Under the pieces are notes generated by a model. That model saw only the letters and a list, made by a program, of their open reading frames with translations. It was not told the DNA's origin and did no database searches. The position numbers were made by a program, and so were the translations under genes. A stretch of DNA of 64,000 nucleotides, from NCBI GenBank assembly GCA_964462015.1, contig CAYWXI010000026.1, positions 233-64,232 on the forward strand, in the 5' to 3' direction. Shown in pieces: positions 1-55,007 of this stretch (the first letter of the stretch is position 1; each line of letters starts with the position of its first letter). Origin of the DNA: an uncultured Bacteroidales bacterium (GTDB lineage: Bacteria > Bacteroidota > Bacteroidia > Bacteroidales > JAEINX01).

Positions 1-1
1 T

Positions 2-154
2 CAAAAGAAAGCAAAAGAAATCATTGAAGAACGAGAGAAAATAATTGCATCAAATAGAGATAGCGAAATATTCTTCGATGCTATTTCAAATCCTGACAAA
101 CCAAACAAGGAATTGCTTTCAGCAGCAAAAGAATTTAATTCTTTGCTTTCATAA
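2..154 (+). CDS. DUF1778 (TacA-like) antitoxin, C-terminal part; the 5' end lies outside the window
   Basis: The frame is open from the window edge and translates to QKKAKEIIEEREKIIASNRDSEIFFDAISNPDKPNKELLSAAKEFNSLLS*. Its TAA overlaps the ATG of the downstream GNAT gene (TAATG at 152-156), the usual TacA-TacT layout. Confidence 0.7.
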   Translation, partial: QKKAKEIIEEREKIIASNRDSEIFFDAISNPDKPNKELLSAAKEFNSLLS

Positions 155-657
155 TGGAGCAATTAACAGAGGTTCTAAACCCAAAACACAGAAAAAAAGA
201 TTTTTCGTGTGGCAAGGATATTCTTGACAAGTATCTTCATCAACAGGCTAGTCAAGATATAAAACGAAAACTTTCAGTTTGTTTTGTGCTAACAGACTCA
301 AATTCAGAAATCATAAAGGGATACTACACTCTATCTAACAATAGTATATCTCAAGAATTTGTACCATTAAAGTTAAGGAAAAGACTTCCGAGCTCATACT
401 CTTCAATTCCAGTGACTTTACTTGGAAGATTAGCAATAGAAAAGAAATTTCAGAGAAAAGGTGTCGGTAAAATATTACTAATTGACGCTTTAAAAAGATG
501 TTATGAAATTTCAAAGAGTATTGGTTCTTATGCAGTAATTGTAGACCCATTAGATAATGATGCTGAAACATTTTATGGAAAATATGGTTTTATAAAATTA
601 CCAGACAGTGGAAAAATGTTTTTGACCATGATAACAATTAAGAGTCTATTTGAATAA
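154..657 (+). CDS. GNAT-family acetyltransferase toxin (TacT-like) of a type II TA pair
   Basis: 167 aa. It has a GNAT core (RLAIEKKFQRKGVGKILLIDAL, ETFYGKYGF) and is translationally coupled to the upstream DUF1778 ORF. Confidence 0.8.
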   Translation: MEQLTEVLNPKHRKKDFSCGKDILDKYLHQQASQDIKRKLSVCFVLTDSNSEIIKGYYTLSNNSISQEFVPLKLRKRLPSSYSSIPVTLLGRLAIEKKFQRKGVGKILLIDALKRCYEISKSIGSYAVIVDPLDNDAETFYGKYGFIKLPDSGKMFLTMITIKSLFE

Positions 658-666
658 AAATACTGT

Positions 667-725
667 GCCCAATAAATAGGCAGGATTATTCGGCGAAGCC
701 GCATTAATCTTGCCTAATGTTGGAC
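667..725 (+). other. Short attC-like site S1 (59 bp)
   Basis: Sequence is GCCCAAT-AAATA-GGCAGGATTA...TAATCTTGCC-TAAT-GTTGGAC. It is an imperfect palindrome with an inner CGGC-GAA-GCCG hairpin. The right end fits GTTRRRY. It starts 10 bp after the GNAT stop. Confidence 0.55.
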
Positions 726-1186
726 TATTACCCGTTTTTGGAGACTCATGTGTTTTCAATTGAGAAGTTTGGTTTTTCCGGGGAGAATGTTCCGGGAATT
801 GTTCACCGTGGAATGCTTTTGGTGAAGTAAAACCGTTAATTTTTCACTTGTGATCTTGTGATTTTCCATAAATCTGTTCGTAAACCAAATACCACTTTAA
901 TCCTTTCTGATAAACCGGGAAGGTGTAAATCTCATCTGTCGAGATATTCCGGGGATGTTTGTTGTAATACTCTATCAGACGCTTTGGCCCGTTAAGGTAA
1001 CTTATTATGGTTCGAGATGCAAGATTCTCTATCACCATACGTTGACGCATTTTTTCGAGAAGTGCATCTACTCCTTTTGATTTTAAAATACTTTTTTTGA
1101 CATAATACAAATTTTTTAATTTATCGAAATAAGTATAAACATTTTTTCTAACTTAGCCCCCCATGAAAGGGTTTAGTTCAACAGCA
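674..1186. repeat. Direct repeat copy 1 of a ~515-bp module (inner attC part + spacer + reverse int-N ORF + left arm of the long palindrome)
   Basis: Aligns by eye with 2533-3056. Positions 1047-1186 versus 2917-3056 showed no differences that I could see; the remainder is roughly 80 percent similar with small indels. Confidence 0.85.
844..1110 (-). CDS. Stand-alone tyrosine-recombinase N-terminal (SAM-like) domain protein, copy 1
   Basis: 88 aa with an apparent TTG start. The pattern LLEKMRQRMVIENLASRTIISYLNGPKRLIEYYNKHPRNISTDEIYTF matches the N-terminal helix bundle of Xer/IntI-type recombinases (LL..R..i......RT...Y......f......HP......ei..f). No catalytic domain follows in any frame. Confidence 0.55.
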   Translation of the reverse strand: MYYVKKSILKSKGVDALLEKMRQRMVIENLASRTIISYLNGPKRLIEYYNKHPRNISTDEIYTFPVYQKGLKWYLVYEQIYGKSQDHK

Positions 1187-1307
1187 AATCATAGCCCATA
1201 GCCGCTTTAGTGCTACCAAGACAAATGAGTATAAGCATAAACATACGATTAATCAAGAAACAAACTGCAAGTGAACGGCTACGGGCCATATTTGCAACAC
1301 GTTACCG
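1176..1307 (+). other. Long attC-like site L1 (132 bp)
   Basis: Left arm GTTCAACAGCAAATCATAGCCCATAGCCGC pairs with right arm GAACGGCTACGGGCCATATTTGCAACACGTTACCG. GTTCAAC fits RYYYAAC. The right end is GTT followed by the start of the next cassette. Confidence 0.6.
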
Positions 1308-1323
1308 CCAAGCAAGCCCCAAT

Positions 1324-1418
1324 GCGGAGAATGAAACAAGTATTCCGGGCAAAATTTGCGGAGAAAATAGCTTTTGCGGAGAATAAGCAGTATATTTGTC
1401 GCTTAATTTGCGGAGAAT
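1324..1418 (+). promoter_or_regulatory. Four direct GCGGAGAA(T/A) boxes upstream of and overlapping the Fic start codon
   Basis: GCGGAGAAT at 1324, GCGGAGAAA at 1358, GCGGAGAAT at 1376 and GCGGAGAAT at 1410, the last one containing the ATG at 1417. Spacing is 34/18/34 bp. Confidence 0.35.
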
Positions 1419-2538
1419 GAAAATTTACATACACGAAAAAGAAAACTGGACGGACTTCACTTGGGATAATAGACAAGTTATGTTAAAACTTGGAGAGGCA
1501 AGGAACCTGCAGGGAAAACTAATGGGTAAAATGGAATCCATAGGCTTTGATTTACAGGATGAAGCCGTATTGAATACACTAACTTTGGATGTTTTAAAAT
1601 CATTTGAAATTGAGGGTGATTATTTAGACAAAGTGCAAGTTCGGTCATCCATAGCAAAACGGCTTGGAATTGATATTGCAGGAGCGGTAGAATCAGAACG
1701 ACACGTTGAAGGTATAGTTGAGATGATGCTAAACGCCACACAACATTATGACTTACCCTTAACAAAAAACAGGCTGTTTGGATGGCATGCAGCACTATTC
1801 CCATCAGGCTGGAGTAATCTTTATAAAATAACTGTTGCTGATTGGAGAAAAGATACTACAGGGCCGATGCAGGTAGTTTCTGGTCCAATGGGGAAAGAAA
1901 AAGTTCATTTTCAGGCACCAAATTCTGACAGGGTAAAATTTGAAATGGAAGAATTCTTACAATGGCTTGAAGGCAAAACTGACATAGATTTAGTCCTTCA
2001 GGCAGCCATTGCACACTTATGGTTTGTGACAATTCATCCTTTTGATGATGGAAATGGAAGAATTGCAAGGGCCATCACCGATATGATATTGGCACGTTCA
2101 GACAATAGTAAGAGACGGTTTTATAGTATGTCTGCTCAAATCAGGATTGAAAGGAAACAGTATTATGAGAATCTTGAAAAAACACAAAAAGGTGATTCGG
2201 ACATTACAGAATGGATTCTATGGTTTTTACAATGTTTAATAAATTCAATTGAATCTACAGATGTTACTTTGTCCAGAATACTTTATAAAGCTGAATTTTG
2301 GAAGTTTCATTCCACTACAATTTTAAACGCAAGACAACAAAAAATAATAAAAAGACTACTCGATGGGTTTGATGGAAAGCTGACAACATCAAAATGGGGA
2401 AAAATTAATAAATGTTCACAAGACACAGCGCTTCGAGACATTCAAGACTTAATTCAAAAAAATATTTTAAGAAAGGAAGCAAGTGGAGGAAGAAGTACAA
2501 ACTATGAATTAGTAGAATTGCCAGGCGGTAACAAATAG
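1417..2538 (+). CDS. Fic family protein (AMPylase-type, with a Fic/DOC N-terminal domain)
   Basis: Contains the HPFDDGNGRIARA motif (HxFx[DE]GNGRxxR). The N-terminus MKIYIHEKENWTDFTWD is typical of this family. The track start at 1396 is a TTG, so the ATG at 1417 is preferred. Confidence 0.85.
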   Translation: MKIYIHEKENWTDFTWDNRQVMLKLGEARNLQGKLMGKMESIGFDLQDEAVLNTLTLDVLKSFEIEGDYLDKVQVRSSIAKRLGIDIAGAVESERHVEGIVEMMLNATQHYDLPLTKNRLFGWHAALFPSGWSNLYKITVADWRKDTTGPMQVVSGPMGKEKVHFQAPNSDRVKFEMEEFLQWLEGKTDIDLVLQAAIAHLWFVTIHPFDDGNGRIARAITDMILARSDNSKRRFYSMSAQIRIERKQYYENLEKTQKGDSDITEWILWFLQCLINSIESTDVTLSRILYKAEFWKFHSTTILNARQQKIIKRLLDGFDGKLTTSKWGKINKCSQDTALRDIQDLIQKNILRKEASGGRSTNYELVELPGGNK

Positions 2539-2601
2539 ACAGGATTATTCGGCGCAGCCGCATTAATCTTGTTCCTGAGGCCTCGGGATTGAACGTTACC
2601 C
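2524..2601 (+). other. Short attC-like site S2
   Basis: Sequence is GGCGGTAAC-AAATA-GACAGGATTA...TAATCTTGT...ATTGAAC-GTTACCC. The left end overlaps the Fic stop codon and is the exact reverse complement of GTTACCGCC at 1301-1309. The inner part is near-identical to S1. Confidence 0.6.
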
Positions 2602-3056
2602 GATTTTGGAGACTACTATGTGTTTTCAATTGCTAAGTTTGGTTTTGCGGGGAGGGATTATCCGGAGATTTTTCACCGTGGAATGTTTATGGTGAGGTAA
2701 AACTTATTATTTTTCAATTATGATGTTGTGATTTTCCATAAATCTACCCGTAAACCAAATACCACTTTAATCCTTTCTGATAAACCGGGAAGGTGTAGAT
2801 ATCATCTGTCGTGATTTTCCGCGGATGTTTGTTGTAATACTCTATCAGGCGTTTCGGCCCGTTTAAATAACTGATGATAGTTCGTGGCAAAAGGTTCTCA
2901 ATCACCATACGTTGACGCGTTTTTTCGAGAAGTGCATCTACTCCTTTTGATTTTAAAATACTTTTTTTGACATAATACAAATTTTTTAATTTATCGAAAT
3001 AAGTATAAACATTTTTTCTAACTTAGCCCCCCATGAAAGGGTTTAGTTCAACAGCA
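2533..3056. repeat. Direct repeat copy 2 of the ~515-bp module
   Basis: See copy 1 (674-1186). Confidence 0.85.
2744..2980 (-). CDS. Stand-alone tyrosine-recombinase N-terminal (SAM-like) domain protein, copy 2
   Basis: 78 aa paralog of 844-1110. In the codons for T-I-I-S-Y-L-N-G-P-K-R the two copies differ at 9 nucleotides and all are synonymous (ACC/ACT, ATA/ATC twice, TAC/TAT, CTT/TTA, CCA/CCG, AAG/AAA, CGT/CGC). Confidence 0.55.
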   Translation of the reverse strand: MYYVKKSILKSKGVDALLEKTRQRMVIENLLPRTIISYLNGPKRLIEYYNKHPRKITTDDIYTFPVYQKGLKWYLVYG

Positions 3057-3177
3057 CCTCATAGCACATGGCCACATTTGAGTCATCAAGAAAAATGAAT
3101 AGTAAATTAAACATACAGGAAATCAACATAAATTTGAGTAGCAAACGGCCACGTGCCATAGCTGCAACACGTTGACA
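3046..3177 (+). other. Long attC-like site L2 (132 bp)
   Basis: Left arm GTTCAACAGCACCTCATAGCACATGGCCAC pairs with right arm AAACGGCCACGTGCCATAGCTGCAACACGTTGACA. The arm sequences differ from L1 but pairing is retained (covariation). Confidence 0.6.
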
Positions 3178-3252
3178 ATCATTAAAATGATAATTATTAA
3201 AGGCGGAACCCGAAAGCCTATAAAGTAGGGATAAAATTAAAATCAATTTACA

Positions 3253-3825
3253 ATGAAAAAAATTATATTTAGTTTAATTATGGCTTTACTATCAACAATT
3301 TGCTTTGCACAAGAGAAGGGCACAAATGACATCTCATGTGGAGTCGGTTTTGCAACGACTAATGATCTTTTAAATTCTGTCGATGACATTATTTCAGATA
3401 TCTTTGGAGTATCTACCGCCAACATTTCGGCCACACCTGCAATCAGTTTAACATATAAGTATACTATTATGAATGATTGGCTATTATATGCAGATGGGAT
3501 TTATCAAACTATTAATAACGATCTTATAAAGCATGACACAATTATAGGTAATGCAAATAACAGATACTACACAATTGGATTTGGAACTGAATATCATTAT
3601 ATAAATAAGGATTGGTTTCAAATGTATTCAGGTGTAAGTTTAGCCTACACTTATCAAAATTCTAATTTTTCACAGTCATCAAACATTAAAGACGACACTG
3701 ACAACTATTTTAACTTTCAGGTTAATGCGGTAGGTCTTCGATTTGGAAAGCAACTTGCCGGAGTACTTGAATTAGGATTTGGGTATAAAGGAATTGCGAA
3801 TTTTGGTGTTTCTTATCAATTCTAA
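3253..3825 (+). CDS. Small outer-membrane beta-barrel protein (OmpW/porin-family-like)
   Basis: Has a signal peptide (MKKIIFSLIMALLSTICFAQ), alternating aromatic/hydrophobic strands and a C-terminal ...FGVSYQF. It starts 76 bp after L2. Confidence 0.6.
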   Translation: MKKIIFSLIMALLSTICFAQEKGTNDISCGVGFATTNDLLNSVDDIISDIFGVSTANISATPAISLTYKYTIMNDWLLYADGIYQTINNDLIKHDTIIGNANNRYYTIGFGTEYHYINKDWFQMYSGVSLAYTYQNSNFSQSSNIKDDTDNYFNFQVNAVGLRFGKQLAGVLELGFGYKGIANFGVSYQF

Positions 3826-4102
3826 TGTAATAAGAAAAACGATTTCTTTATTTCTCATGAATCTGAAGATAAAGAAAATTTGGCATTAAGTATCAACTGC
3901 TTTACCTTCTATTTGGATACAGCTCACCCACGGATAAAATCATATTATCGTTTTGAGTACCTGGAATTAAATTATATAAATCGAATTCCTTTAGGAACTT
4001 TTTTTAAAAATTTGTCATGAAAATATTTTTTTTATAAATTGCAAAATGATATTTACCGACAAATTTTTTAAAGATCAAACCACCGAGCGATATTGAGGTT
4101 TA

Positions 4103-4223
4103 GTTCAACAGCAAGTATATCACATAGCCGCGTAGCGGTCATTAAGACAAAGAATTGTAAAATTGATAATCGTACCAATCAGATTAAGGAACGGCTACAT
4201 GCCATACTTGCAAAACGTTAGCG
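4103..4223 (+). other. Long attC-like site L3 (121 bp)
   Basis: Left arm GTTCAACAGCAAGTATATCACATAGCCGCG pairs with right arm GGAACGGCTACATGCCATACTTGCAAAACGTTAGCG. It shares the flank GGTTTAGTTCAACAGCA and the ...TGCAAnACGTT end with L1 and L2. Confidence 0.6.
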
Positions 4224-4242
4224 GCAAGGTAATTAAGAGGAC

Positions 4243-4956
4243 ATGAAGGTATTAATCAATAAAGGAAGAAATTATTCTGGAAAATGGAATATTAACTATG
4301 TTTCAGTATCTAATAATATTTGTATAATGGATAACCATCGTGTTGCTTTTTGGTTTTGGATAAATAATTTAAATAAGACAAAAAAATATCGGATTATTCA
4401 TGCAGATAAGCACTTTGTCACTCAGGAAGGTTGCTTGAGTGAATGGAAACCAACTATACCTGAAAACCTTGAAGAATTGACATTGGAACAACTAATGGAA
4501 ATCGGTTATGAAAAAGAAAACTTTTTCTGTAAAACAATTCAATATGATAACTATCTAACGCTTTTTCATGAATATTATTCAGACAATGTTTTTGATTATT
4601 TTTTCTTTACTCATAATGTTGGTAAGTTGCCAACTAAATTAGATCATTTATATAATTGGGGCCCTAATGCACTTATTGAACAATTGCCTGACTTAATTTT
4701 TGATTGCGAAAGTAAATTAATTGTCAATATAGATTTGGATTACTTTTTTGTAAATGGACATATGCTATTATCTGATTATTCAATCAATCATATTCTTAAA
4801 ACTATAAAGAAAGGAATAGACAAAAAGAATGTGGAAATTTTAACCATAGCATTAAGTCCGGAAGATTGTGAAAATTGGACAAAAAGCATATCGTTTTTTA
4901 ACAAATATGTTTCTGAAATTTTAGAAATAGATAAAATTAAAATACCCAGCCGCTAA
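4243..4956 (+). CDS. Hypothetical protein, possibly UPF0489-like (family assignment from memory, uncertain)
   Basis: 237 aa. The motifs MDNHRVAFWFW and NIDLDYFF resemble UPF0489. It starts 20 bp after L3. Its last codons contain GCCGCTAAC, the reverse complement of GTTAGCGGC at 4217-4225. Confidence 0.4.
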   Translation: MKVLINKGRNYSGKWNINYVSVSNNICIMDNHRVAFWFWINNLNKTKKYRIIHADKHFVTQEGCLSEWKPTIPENLEELTLEQLMEIGYEKENFFCKTIQYDNYLTLFHEYYSDNVFDYFFFTHNVGKLPTKLDHLYNWGPNALIEQLPDLIFDCESKLIVNIDLDYFFVNGHMLLSDYSINHILKTIKKGIDKKNVEILTIALSPEDCENWTKSISFFNKYVSEILEIDKIKIPSR

Positions 4957-5027
4957 CATTTTAGGATTTATGGCTCAGTTGGCAAAAAAAAGCAAGAAAG
5001 CTTGAATCTTCTTGCTTTTTGTTTTAT
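4949..5027 (+). other. Terminal short attC-like site S3, overlapping a rho-independent terminator
   Basis: GCCGCTAAC-ATTTT-AGGATT...GAATCTT has the same AGGATT/AATCTT inner boxes as S1 and S2. It is followed by the hairpin AGCAAGAA-(loop)-TTCTTGCT plus TTTTTGTTTT (4991-5027). There is no similarity to array elements to the right of this point. Confidence 0.4.
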
Positions 5028-5274
5028 CAGCAAAAAGCAGGCAAATCTTAAATGTGCAATTCTCCTCCCCTTTTCCGGTTTTTAGGAAAAACATGACGTT
5101 TTCATGCAATTTTTTCTGCTAAAAATCCACTAAAATCACGGTATTTTCGTCCAAAATCAGCAAAAAATGAAAAAAAAATAAAAATTTTTAATTTTTTTTC
5201 GATCCTTATTATACTCATATTCTTAATAATACATTTTTTACAGTATCATGCTATAAATAATAATTAAAAAAATG

Positions 5275-53318: not shown

Positions 53319-55007
53319 ATGAAACAATTAATTGAATGCGTTCCGAATTTTAGCGAAGGACGTGATATGAATATTATAAAACAGATCACCGACGAAATTG
53401 AAAAAGTCGAAGGAGTTAAATTGTTAGACGTTGATCCGGGTGCGGCAACAAATCGTACGGTTGTAACCATTGTCGGAACTCCTGACGAAGTTTGCGAGGC
53501 TGCCTTTCGTGCCGTTAAAAAGGCATCACAAATAATTGATATGAGTAAACATAAAGGCGAACACCCTAGAATGGGAGCTACTGATGTTTGTCCATTGGTT
53601 CCTGTTTCAAATATTACAATGGAAGAAACTGTGGAGTATGCCCGTAAACTTGCAAAACGTATCGGTAAAGAACTTGAAATTCCGATTTATTGTTACGAAA
53701 ATGCAGCTTTTACTGAAGAAAGAAGAAATTTGGCTACCTGCCGTTCAGGCGAATACGAAGGCATGGCAGAAAAACTTACCATTCCAAAATGGAAACCCGA
53801 TTTCGGCCCGGCAAAATTAAATGTTAAGGCAGGCGTTACTGCCGTTGGAGCAAGAGATTTTCTGGTTGCTTTTAATGTTAATCTCAATACAACTTCAACG
53901 AGGCGTGCAAATGCAATTGCTTTTGATGTCCGTGAACGAGGACGCACAAAACGTGAAGGTGATCCTGTTACCGGAAAAATTGTTAAGGATGAAAAGGGTA
54001 AACCTGTGATGATTCCGGGTAGCCTGAAATGCGTTAAAGGAATTGGCTGGTTTATCGAAGAATACGGTATTGCTCAAATTTCCATGAACCTTACAAATAT
54101 CAGTGTAACACCGGTTCATGTTGCTTTCGACGAAACCTGTAAAAAAGCCGAAGCCAGAGGGATCAGGGTAACAGGTTCCGAACTCGTTGGATTGATACCT
54201 TTACAAGCAATGCTTGATGCCGGAAAATATTTCCTTCGCAAACAAGAACGTTCTCTTGGTGTATCACAGGATGAATTGCTGAAAATTGCCGTAAAATCGA
54301 TGGGCCTTGATGACCTCAAACCATTCAATCCGAAAGAAAGAATAATAGAATTTATTCTTCAGGATGACAATAAAAACAAACTCATCGATATGAATCTCGC
54401 TGAATTTGCAGATGAAACTGCTTCAGAATCACCAGCCCCCGGTGGTGGATCAATTTCAGCTTATGTTGGAACTCTCGGTATTTCTTTAGCAACGATGGTT
54501 GCAAATCTTTCATCACACAAAAGAGGTTGGGATAAACGTTGGGAAGAATTTAGCTCGTGGGCTGAAAAAGGCCAGAAAATAAAAGATGAACTTTTACACC
54601 TAGTCGATGAAGATACAATTGCATTTAATAAAATAATGGATGCATTCGGACTTCCTAAGAAAAGTGAAGAAGATAAAACTGCCCGTGCTCAAGCTATCGA
54701 AGATGCATCAAAATATGCTATTGAAATTCCGTTTAAAGTGATGCAAAAATCCTATGAATCAATGGATGTTATTAAAGCTATGGCAGAAATCGGTAACCCA
54801 AATTCGGTTTCCGATGCAGGTGTAGGAGCTTTATGTGCCAGAACGGCAGTAATGGGTGCTTATTTGAATGTAAAAATCAATGCTTCAGGCGTTGAAGATA
54901 AAGATTTTGTAAATAAAAAATTATCCGAAGGATTGGAAATTGAAACGAAATCTAAGCAACTTGAAGATGAAATCTTAGAAACTGTAAACGAGAAGATTGC
55001 CTCTTAG
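53319..55007 (+). CDS. ftcD: Bifunctional glutamate formimidoyltransferase / formimidoyltetrahydrofolate cyclodeaminase
   Basis: Begins LIECVPNFSEGRD and contains GATDVCP. The C-terminal half carries the cyclodeaminase motif SPAPGGGS. Confidence 0.85.
   Translation: MKQLIECVPNFSEGRDMNIIKQITDEIEKVEGVKLLDVDPGAATNRTVVTIVGTPDEVCEAAFRAVKKASQIIDMSKHKGEHPRMGATDVCPLVPVSNITMEETVEYARKLAKRIGKELEIPIYCYENAAFTEERRNLATCRSGEYEGMAEKLTIPKWKPDFGPAKLNVKAGVTAVGARDFLVAFNVNLNTTSTRRANAIAFDVRERGRTKREGDPVTGKIVKDEKGKPVMIPGSLKCVKGIGWFIEEYGIAQISMNLTNISVTPVHVAFDETCKKAEARGIRVTGSELVGLIPLQAMLDAGKYFLRKQERSLGVSQDELLKIAVKSMGLDDLKPFNPKERIIEFILQDDNKNKLIDMNLAEFADETASESPAPGGGSISAYVGTLGISLATMVANLSSHKRGWDKRWEEFSSWAEKGQKIKDELLHLVDEDTIAFNKIMDAFGLPKKSEEDKTARAQAIEDASKYAIEIPFKVMQKSYESMDVIKAMAEIGNPNSVSDAGVGALCARTAVMGAYLNVKINASGVEDKDFVNKKLSEGLEIETKSKQLEDEILETVNEKIAS

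Follow-up and report, generated by a model that had tools for sequence, protein, structure and literature searches.

Gene Content and Organization of the Locus

We analyzed a 64 kb stretch of DNA (hereafter the window; positions 233 to 64,232 of contig CAYWXI010000026.1) from an uncultured Bacteroidales bacterium, the first 5,027 positions of which comprise a candidate integron-type gene-cassette array. The window starts inside the array, with the array head lying to the left of coordinate 1. All sizeable open reading frames (ORFs) within positions 1-4956 are on the plus strand, and the cargo of positions 1-5027 comprises a TacA/GNAT toxin-antitoxin pair, a Fic gene, a small outer-membrane barrel, and a UPF0489-like ORF. 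These four plus-strand units, and the cargo types assigned to them in an earlier reading of the letters alone (the original prediction), were recovered in the ORF list and by Pfam, with weak matches for the barrel and UPF0489. The right edge also falls where it had been placed, at about 5027, and core genes (padR, a pspC-domain gene, pyrH, and frr, as identified from the ORF list and Pfam) follow from about 5027-5030 rightward. The base composition of positions 1-5027 was not distinguishable from that of the rest of the window.

The earlier count of features was revised to four cargo units, three good sites, and three element remnants. Collectively, their arrangement suggests, with a probability of roughly 0.78, that positions 1-5027 are the distal end of a chromosomal integron-type cassette array in a Bacteroidales-like host, resembling as far as visible a cluster of attC sites that has no integron-integrase (CALIN), and that IS91-type insertion sequences (IS) are nested in its sites. 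The features are as follows, where the bar in G|TT denotes the crossover.

2-657, plus strand: 3' part of cassette 1, with a partial tacA-like antitoxin gene (2-154) and a GNAT toxin gene (154-657), both matched by Pfam
665-673, plus strand: R'' box of cassette 1, GTGCCCAAT, complementary at 8 of 9 positions to the cassette's own start, GTTGGGCAC
674-1182, minus strand: element copy X1, with 3' hairpin (674-725, short site A), 3' subterminal region, truncated recombinase ORF (844-1110), 5' leader, and terminal 13-mer GGTTTAGTTCAAC (1170-1182)
1176-1307, plus strand: site B, 132 bp, G|TT with G at 1301, R' box G|TTACCG
1302-2532, plus strand: cassette 2, with a DUF4172-Fic gene running from ATG at 1418 to a stop at 2538 (ORF 1396/1418-2538)
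2533-3052, minus strand: element copy X2, with 3' hairpin (2533-2601, short site C), truncated recombinase ORF (2744-2980), and terminal 13-mer (3040-3052)
3046-3177, plus strand: site D, 132 bp, G|TT at 3171
3172-3897, plus strand: cassette 3, with a small outer-membrane beta-barrel-like ORF (3253-3825; weak Pfam match to OMP_b-brl, 0.0034)
3898-4109 (approximate), minus strand: remnant Z of a second IS91/recombinase family, with the same 13-mer at 4097-4109
4103-4223, plus strand: site F, 121 bp, G|TT at 4217
4218-4957, plus strand: cassette 4, with a UPF0489-like ORF (4243-4956; weak Pfam match to UPF0489)
4958-5027, no strand: right end of the array, with a degenerate short stub, ATTTTAGGATTTATGGCTCAGTTGGC, in the expected site position, then a hairpin, then core genes

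Long Sites Share the Polarity Marks of attC Sites

Sites B, D, and F are palindromes that end in G|TT, in agreement with the three long sites of 121-132 bp that had been predicted, and a repeat analysis revealed that they have their outer arms in common. They are three of the four most stable candidates with the layout AAC...hairpin...GTT on either strand of the 64 kb (-39.8, -33.5, and -32.9 kcal/mol), as ranked by a permissive scan that returned 191 candidates in the window at loose thresholds and served for ranking only. A strong fold at 54107-54252 was rejected as a site; it lies within a coding gene and is ascribed to chance. Site B comprises an R'' box GTTCAAC (derived from X), an imperfect stem of 21/20 nt with one extra C on the 5' arm, and a variable center of about 75 nt. 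Functionally, it is the site of cassette 1, parted from its R'' box by X1.

The minus strand of site B folds at -39.8 kcal/mol as compared to -27.3 kcal/mol for the plus strand, and over sites B, D, and F the minus strand was more stable by 9-12.5 kcal/mol with RNA parameters and by 1.5-6.3 kcal/mol with DNA parameters. Relative to shuffled sequences, these minus-strand folds had z scores of -2.1 to -2.8. The sites of the window and of related contigs are diverse palindromes of 40-135 nt that end in (A)CCG|TT, have inner lengths of 39-120 nt, and exhibit little sequence conservation between families. Complementarity of a site's own arms averaged 20.9, as opposed to 10.0 +/- 2.6 for arms paired across sites, and the own partner was the best one in 14 of 19 sites; the sites were delimited by hand for these comparisons, as automatic delimitation misplaced the boundaries of several. 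Extra unpaired bases fell on the 5' (R''-proximal) arm in 25 cases and on the 3' arm in one, and transition mismatches that yield G.T on the bottom strand outnumbered the reverse by 60 to 16 (p = 3.9e-7). The check for bottom-strand folding, R boxes, spacers, and extrahelical bases that the original prediction had proposed thus favored the minus strand of all three long sites. A scan of the whole window against Rfam 15 yielded no match. These observations suggest that the long sites behave as attC-like recombination sites, with the polarity marks of attC sites recombined as the bottom strand.

Cassette Ends Are Complementary to Their Own Starts

Complementarity between the start and the end of one and the same unit, extending over 8-10 nt after G|TT, was found in three units of the window and in one further unit of contig L001, which is 100% identical to positions 1-703 of the window and reaches 1.8 kb further left. 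This contig places the start of cassette 1 at G|TTGGGCAC, 231 nt left of the window (L001 1556-1564), and gives the pair TTGGGCAC / GTGCCCAAt (665). The start of cassette 2, TTACCGCC (1302), is complementary to its R'' box GGCGGTAAC (2524-2532), forming the pair TTACCGCC/GGCGGTAA, which is the window's match in the inverted-repeat test described below. Likewise, the start of cassette 4, TTAGCGGC (4218), is complementary to GCCGCTAAC (4949-4957) through the pair TTAGCGGC/GCCGCTAA, and the next unit leftward in L001 has a perfect 10-nt pair, TTATAAAAA/TTTTTATAA.

Among 41 non-redundant junctions from related contigs, 18 had, 576-3157 nt upstream, a 10-nt partner in which GTT was fixed and no more than one mismatch was allowed; when boxes were permuted among loci, 1.7 junctions passed on average and never more than 5. 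The longest ORF was on the plus strand in all 18 units that passed this test; it started 20-170 nt past G|TT in 16 of them (later in two multi-gene units) and ended 0-26 nt short of the R'' end in 17. Within the window, ORFs start 26-117 nt past G|TT, in agreement with the boundaries originally proposed for the cassette starts. Complementarity of this kind is the signature of a circular cassette opened at G|TT. A cargo cassette would accordingly extend from the TT of the G|TT crossover to an inverse core, ...YAAC, which can pair with the cassette's own first bases.

Pfam profiles matched TacA1/DUF1778 over 2-151 (3.4e-09) and GNAT families over 154-657 in cassette 1, and DUF4172 (2.4e-28) and Fic (2.4e-17) in cassette 2. 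The stop codon TAG of the Fic gene (2533-2538) is derived from AAATAG, the first bases of inserted X2; in the absence of X, the frame would extend by three codons and end at a TAG within the long site. The stop codon TAA of the UPF0489-like ORF (4954-4956) falls within the R'' box. An A-rich motif, AAAA(T)AC(G)..., precedes the variable R'' box at many cassette 3' ends, 20-30 nt upstream of AAC| junctions (about 40 loci), which suggests that the paired R box may reach 11-12 bp (AT-N7-AAC / GTT-N7-AT). Cargo in related arrays included ParDE, Shedu (SduA_C), ROC-COR, restriction-modification, and RhuM. Both this cargo and the toxin-antitoxin and Fic genes of the window match the cargo reported for sedentary integrons (bioRxiv 10.1101/2024.07.02.601686).

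Short Sites A and C as Ends of Nested, Probably IS91-Derived Elements

The original prediction recognized three short sites as a class of their own and regarded the mixture of two site classes in one array as unusual. Neither proposal held. Sites A and C are the same hairpin at the end of X1 and X2, which form a direct repeat of 510-520 bp with 85% identity. Site E (about 3891-3960), at the far end of Z, does not fold better than shuffled sequence (z = +1.19 for 3880-3975), and neither does site G (4949-4985; z = +1.5). What appeared as a short class is the terminal hairpin of inverted IS91/recombinase remnants nested at the R'' boxes of long sites, and the nesting of such decayed elements accounts for the seeming alternation of short and long sites.

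The hairpin of X folds well (z = -3.4 relative to shuffled sequences). A scan for it yielded 46 loci (5 in GTDB genomes and 41 in JGI metagenomes), or about 50 copies with the window and contig L003; contigs carrying X were from the JGI metagenome collection (41) and from three Bacteroidales metagenome-assembled genomes (MAGs). Throughout these copies, conserved sequence starts directly after a variable N7-YAAC and continues into the body of X. The hairpin is invariant and always joined to X on one side, and the site on the other side of X varies. The wobble polarity of the hairpin is the reverse of that of the cargo sites (9:1), which agrees with X lying in the opposite orientation.

Read on the minus strand, X has the anatomy of a cassette. 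It starts with G|TTGAACTAAACCC, has its genes in sense, and ends with an R'' box, TAGTCCAAC, followed by a hairpin and G|TT; an 11-bp stem, closed by a loop, is set off from R'' by a 3-nt spacer and from the final G|TT by one of 4 nt. The start, GTTGGACTA, can pair with TAGTTCAAC at the other end, and the ends form an inverted pair of 7-9 nt that resembles a cassette R box and covaries among copies (GTTGTAC/GTACAAC in L013, GTTGAAC/GTCCAAC in X, and GTTGAAC/GTTCAAC in the L010 variant). The flank at the transposase-distal end was GTTR in all copies, and no target duplication was seen.

The minus-strand ORFs of X1 and X2 (88 and 78 aa) encode the N-terminal SAM-like domain of a tyrosine recombinase (PF13495). 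A word-index protein search with the 88 aa fragment returned two fragments only, and an exhaustive search with a longer relative returned full-length proteins of 268-291 aa and one chimera (P0004), in which the recombinase N-terminus is fused to an IS91 transposase. Full-length copies of X encode a recombinase of 271-274 aa and then a Zn_Tnp_IS91/Y2_Tnp transposase. The parent element is present in L013, L052, L026, and L060, and in intact copies the genes are in sense on the strand of X and followed by the short hairpin; the transposase of L060 scored 433 bits against NF033538 (cutoff 125). The window copies of X and Z retain no transposase sequence, and X copies in general exhibit internal deletions of all sizes, down to derivatives of about 300 bp that retain only the two ends and resemble miniature inverted-repeat transposable elements. 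The transposase gene in full-length relatives with the same ends suggests that X is IS91-derived, and we consider it to be a deletion derivative of an IS91-family element that encoded a tyrosine recombinase and a Y2 transposase. The idea that the integrase fragment of the window is a 5' piece of intI beside attI was considered and dropped.

Positions 3953-4109 are 77% identical to the 5' end of an intact Z element, with recombinase and transposase genes, in L041, and a shorter copy in L030 matches the same stretch. The 'ORF-less cassette' in front of site F is thus a third element remnant. The terminal 13-mer, G(G/A)TTTAGTTCAAC, is common to at least three families (X, Y, and Z) that have unrelated subterminal sequence, and diverse attC-like interiors lie beyond it.

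The junctions of these elements are in a fixed register. X lies exactly at AAC| of the R'' box of a cargo site, in the opposite polarity, and so does Z. Removal of X from crossover to crossover restores the long site in register (GTGCCCAA|CAGCAAATCATAGCC... and GGCGGTAA|CAGCACCTCATAGC...). One attC-like family was found empty in L022 and L018 (...YAAC|AAAAAATATAGT...) and occupied in L020 and L050 (...YAAC|[X...TAGTTCAAC]|AAAAAATATAGT...), with an identical register. An X-free allele of the same cassette was also sought, and one ambiguous case (L027 versus L011) was found. In L060, the place of the first cassette is taken by an intact element in sense orientation.

Collectively, these observations are compatible with a model in which four promoter-poor plus-strand cassettes each once had an attC-like hairpin site of about 120-130 nt behind them. 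Three of the sites would later have been invaded at AAC| of their R'' boxes by IS91-type elements with an Xer-like recombinase and a Y2 HUH transposase, themselves built like cassettes, with a G|TTGAAC... start, genes in sense, and a short attC-like hairpin of their own at the end. Insertion would have proceeded by site-specific strand exchange at G|TT, that is, at AAC|/G|TT of the R'' box, on the normally unused strand of the cargo site. This would have left the element inverted between two hybrid sites, after which an internal deletion would have spared its two ends. Cassettes may move as folded single strands in this model. IS91 transposition has been reported to proceed via circular single-stranded DNA (PMC5714925), and a circle of this kind is the substrate that a hairpin site needs.

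Array Borders and Array Heads in Related Genomes

The junction between the array and core genes was also present in the independent contigs L004 and L005, both of which begin inside site F. A bidirectional, terminator-like hairpin at about 4984-5025, with A/T runs on either side (AAAAAAAAGCAAGAAagcttgaatcTTCTTGCTTTTTGTTTT), marks this border. Exact look-ups of window proteins returned only short contigs of the same strain that end at repeats, and cassette comparison between genomes at this locus was accordingly limited to same-strain contigs. The 428 aa protein upstream of the window, used as a query in a metagenome scan, gave no match.

Related arrays start beside a conserved remnant of an Xer-like recombinase gene that is co-oriented with the cassettes, and all of the array-start copies seen were truncated. 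The remnants were distributed as follows.

L021, L034, and L051: about 50-60 aa
L055-L058: 80 aa
L059: 122 aa
L060: 194 aa

Behind the remnant come a hairpin and, about 50 nt beyond it, the first G|TT; this conserved region spans about 90 nt. Arrays headed in this manner were also identified in Labilibaculum and Mangrovibacterium genomes. The length of the remnant is nearly fixed within lineages (122-123 aa in three paralogous loci of Labilibaculum manganireducens, P0182, P0272, and P0273; 80 aa in the lineage of L055-L058), and such conservation of length and sequence is unexpected for simple pseudogenes. At the same chromosomal position, L021 and L034 carry different first cassettes (392 aa versus 140 aa); in both, an FtsX-like gene and an integrase remnant lie upstream.

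Several further features were observed near array heads. In L. manganireducens (L059 9640-9860), at least eight direct repeats CAACTG(G/A)A separate a 249 aa ORF, which has no Pfam match, from the 122 aa remnant; in L055-L058, a similar ORF (226 aa) and a gap of about 350 bp are present. The idea that these ORFs represent the missing N-terminal half of the recombinase was rejected on the basis of no similarity in Pfam. In L055 (7785-8231), and also in L056 and L058, a gene for an IS200-type Y1 HUH transposase is situated between a MacB/FtsX permease gene and the remnant, some 2 kb upstream of the array head. In L063 (1497-1612), two direct repeats, AAATAAACGAAGTTC, followed by AGTTATG lie downstream of an intact 383 aa recombinase (P0024) in an attI-like layout; P0024 has an N-terminal extra domain, a SAM-like domain, and a catalytic domain, without the IntI insertion. 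Finally, plus-strand fragments at L061 12393-12518 and L062 12299-12517 are 67-71% identical to what we take to be the C-terminus of IntI1. A HindIII-type restriction-modification pair follows closely downstream of these fragments, which may be true integron integrase remnants in a distant array.

Comparison With Known Systems

The array shares with sedentary chromosomal integrons and CALINs (Cury et al., 2016, PMC4889954; Neron et al., 2022, PMC9024848) the one-directional, tight packing of mostly promoterless ORFs, G|TT boundaries with an inverse core complementary to the cassette start, and palindromes of varying sequence and length that have their extra bases on the R''/L'' arm and are biased toward the bottom strand. 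Further shared attributes are toxin-antitoxin and defense cargo and a visible part without an adjoining integrase. It differs in its Bacteroidales-like host, in R-L spacers that are shorter than the textbook ones, and in that the array-start recombinase remnants of relatives are co-oriented with the cassettes and have no IntI-specific domain. Surveys of RefSeq genomes reported Bacteroidetes with In0 elements only and one complete integron in Salinibacter (PMC9024848). Work based on MAGs placed Bacteroidota among the integron-bearing phyla (PMC9668308).

Modules of the pdif/Xer type (28-bp XerC-spacer-XerD) were rejected as an identity for the sites, which are hairpins with inner lengths of 39-120 nt and G|TT/AAC| cores; the alternating polarity results from nested elements rather than from such modules. 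Mobile elements that are specific to attC sites include IS1111-attC insertion sequences and group IIC-attC introns. Like these, the elements described here sit in an attC-type site in a fixed register and orientation and split it into two hybrid halves. In contrast to them, they encode an Xer-like tyrosine recombinase and a Y2 HUH transposase instead of a DEDD transposase or reverse transcriptase, and they have an attC-like hairpin of their own, cassette-type ends, a crossover position at R'', and inverted polarity.

Among IS91-type elements, ISCR1 is associated with class 1 integrons, and some IS91 members in ISfinder appear to have an upstream integrase gene. The Y2 HUH rolling-circle transposase of full-length copies and the apparent lack of target duplication are shared with IS91/ISCR elements, including ISWz1 (PMC5714925; PMC11322121). 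ISWz1 of Weeksellaceae occurs as truncated IS91-family copies beside resistance genes in islands of Bacteroidota and forms circles (PMC11322121). Unlike the ori91/ter91 ends of classical IS91, the ends described here mimic cassette boundaries, and the targets are attC-like R'' boxes rather than GTTC/CTTG. The recombinases of X, Z, and array starts resemble IntI (TIGR02249) in having a SAM-like N-terminal domain and a catalytic domain, and differ in scoring below the cutoff with the IntI-specific region skipped. In the literature searched, IS91/recombinase elements that have cassette ends and live in attC sites were not found to be described.

Weighing of the Evidence and Alternative Explanations

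Several observations weigh against an integron-type array as the identity of this locus. Unpaired spacers in the sites measure 1-4 nt on the 5' side and 3-6 nt on the 3' side, unlike those of textbook attC sites. The boundary of cassette 3 is the least certain of the set, with a putative R'' box, TATCAAC (3891-3897), that pairs only weakly (6 of 8) with the start GTTGACAATC, and cassette 4 has no proper site at its 3' end, where the stub ATTTTAGGATTTATGGCTCAGTTGGC exhibits no fold above background. One full-length X (L052 4740-7175; recombinase of 273 aa and transposase) lies between minus-strand ORFs, beside sulfatase genes and an integrase of the conjugative transposon (CTn) type, and not in an obvious cassette array. 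Because the X hairpin served as the bait for related loci, ascertainment bias affects the association of arrays with X. As had been predicted, no integrase is in view: a tblastn search of the 64 kb window with four recombinase queries found only two N-terminal fragments and no integron integrase, the array head being outside the window. None reaching the TIGR02249 cutoff was found in the 64 related loci (about 450 kb) either, where contigs are short and break at repeats and an intI could lie elsewhere. All 20 recombinases that were scanned (those of X, Z, array starts, and relatives) scored below the cutoff of 265. The longer sequences gave strong partial matches of about 98-226 bits, either as two stretches that skip profile positions ~180-240 or at the C-terminal end only. 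In relatives with a complete catalytic domain, about 62 residues separate GKGKKDR from HxLRHSFA, which leaves no room for the additional domain of IntI. On these grounds, the recombinases found are predicted not to be IntI. Of the integron/CALIN logic originally proposed, the one-directional packing, attC-like sites, and typical cargo are retained, and the array is a putative member of the integrons proper.

An alternative that retains the same anatomy dispenses with a canonical IntI, such that an Xer-like recombinase without the IntI domain, either borne by the element or of the ~380 aa array-start type, moves both cassettes and elements, with the Y2 HUH transposase possibly supplying single-stranded DNA circles. 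Recombinases of this type are the only ones beside arrays in the 64 loci, and array starts comprise their co-oriented remnants, then a hairpin with the first G|TT about 50 nt past it. The intact, sense-oriented element at the first-cassette position in L060, the adherence of element ends to cassette rules including covariation (L013 versus X), and the circular single-stranded intermediate of IS91 (PMC5714925) point in the same direction. However, the asymmetry of extrahelical bases in the cargo sites is what the special domain of IntI reads in known integrons, every array-start recombinase seen is truncated, and the short contigs, broken at repeats, leave room for an intI elsewhere. Integrons with IntI have, moreover, been reported in Bacteroidota (PMC9668308), and the L061/L062 fragments, at one distant locus, resemble what we take to be the IntI1 C-terminus (67-71%). 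We regard this alternative as possible, if doubtful. It is somewhat less likely that X and Z are ordinary rolling-circle IS91 insertions at a preferred tetranucleotide within the sites, with ends that resemble those of cassettes by coincidence. This would accord with a family that generates neither target duplications nor terminal inverted repeats (PMC5714925) and with the GTTR that always flanks the transposase-distal end. It would not explain why removal from G|TT to G|TT restores the register, which removal of a classical IS would not, nor why three unrelated subterminal families share the same 13-mer containing the crossover box, why the two ends covary as an R box, or why the 3' end is attC-like with the expected strand polarity. 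The preference of IS91 for GTTC/CTTG was counted in favor of such ordinary insertion.

If instead all six palindromes were ordinary attC sites of six plus-strand cassettes, in two attC classes, then the 0.5 kb repeats would be cassettes with an integrase pseudogene. The short hairpin can indeed be written on the plus strand as R''(cargo)-stem-G|TTGGAC and folds well in that form (z = -3.4), and the complementarity of the X start GTTGGACTA to TAGTTCAAC fits such a reading. Plus-strand cassettes would nonetheless predict the opposite of an invariant hairpin tied to the X body with variation on the other side. The wobble polarity of the short hairpin is reversed relative to the cargo sites, in intact copies this hairpin comes after recombinase and transposase genes that read in sense on the minus strand, and sites E and G do not fold, all of which renders the six-site arrangement very unlikely. 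The least probable explanation is that no cassette system exists here and that the palindromes are terminators or repetitive extragenic palindromic (REP)-like repeats in an accessory island with IS debris. The terminator-like hairpin at 4984-5025 and the 191 hairpin candidates at loose thresholds would be expected under this explanation, but unit-specific complementarity of 8-10 nt at 10 times the chance rate, fixed G|TT and AAC| registers, arm asymmetries of 25:1 and 60:16, and differing cargo at the same position in relatives would not.

Implications for Gene Capture in Bacteroidales

Integrons are the best-understood gene-capture platforms and are sparsely reported in Bacteroidota. The locus described here is a CALIN-like array that harbors attC-resident IS91/recombinase elements of a kind not described before, and the array family to which it belongs recurs in many contigs with toxin-antitoxin, Fic, and anti-phage cargo. 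IS91-type elements that have acquired cassette ends live inside attC-like sites in these arrays, and the resulting hybrid sites would be miscounted by annotation pipelines. A more far-reaching interpretation, which we advance only tentatively and consider unlikely at present, is that Bacteroidales have a widespread integron-like system without IntI. An Xer-like recombinase in cassette form and an IS91 Y2 HUH transposase that makes single-stranded circles would together recombine hairpins at G|TT and thereby build and invade arrays of toxin-antitoxin and anti-phage genes. If it is true that the partner recombinase is not IntI, then the link of attC-type single-strand recombination to the IntI-specific domain would need rethinking.

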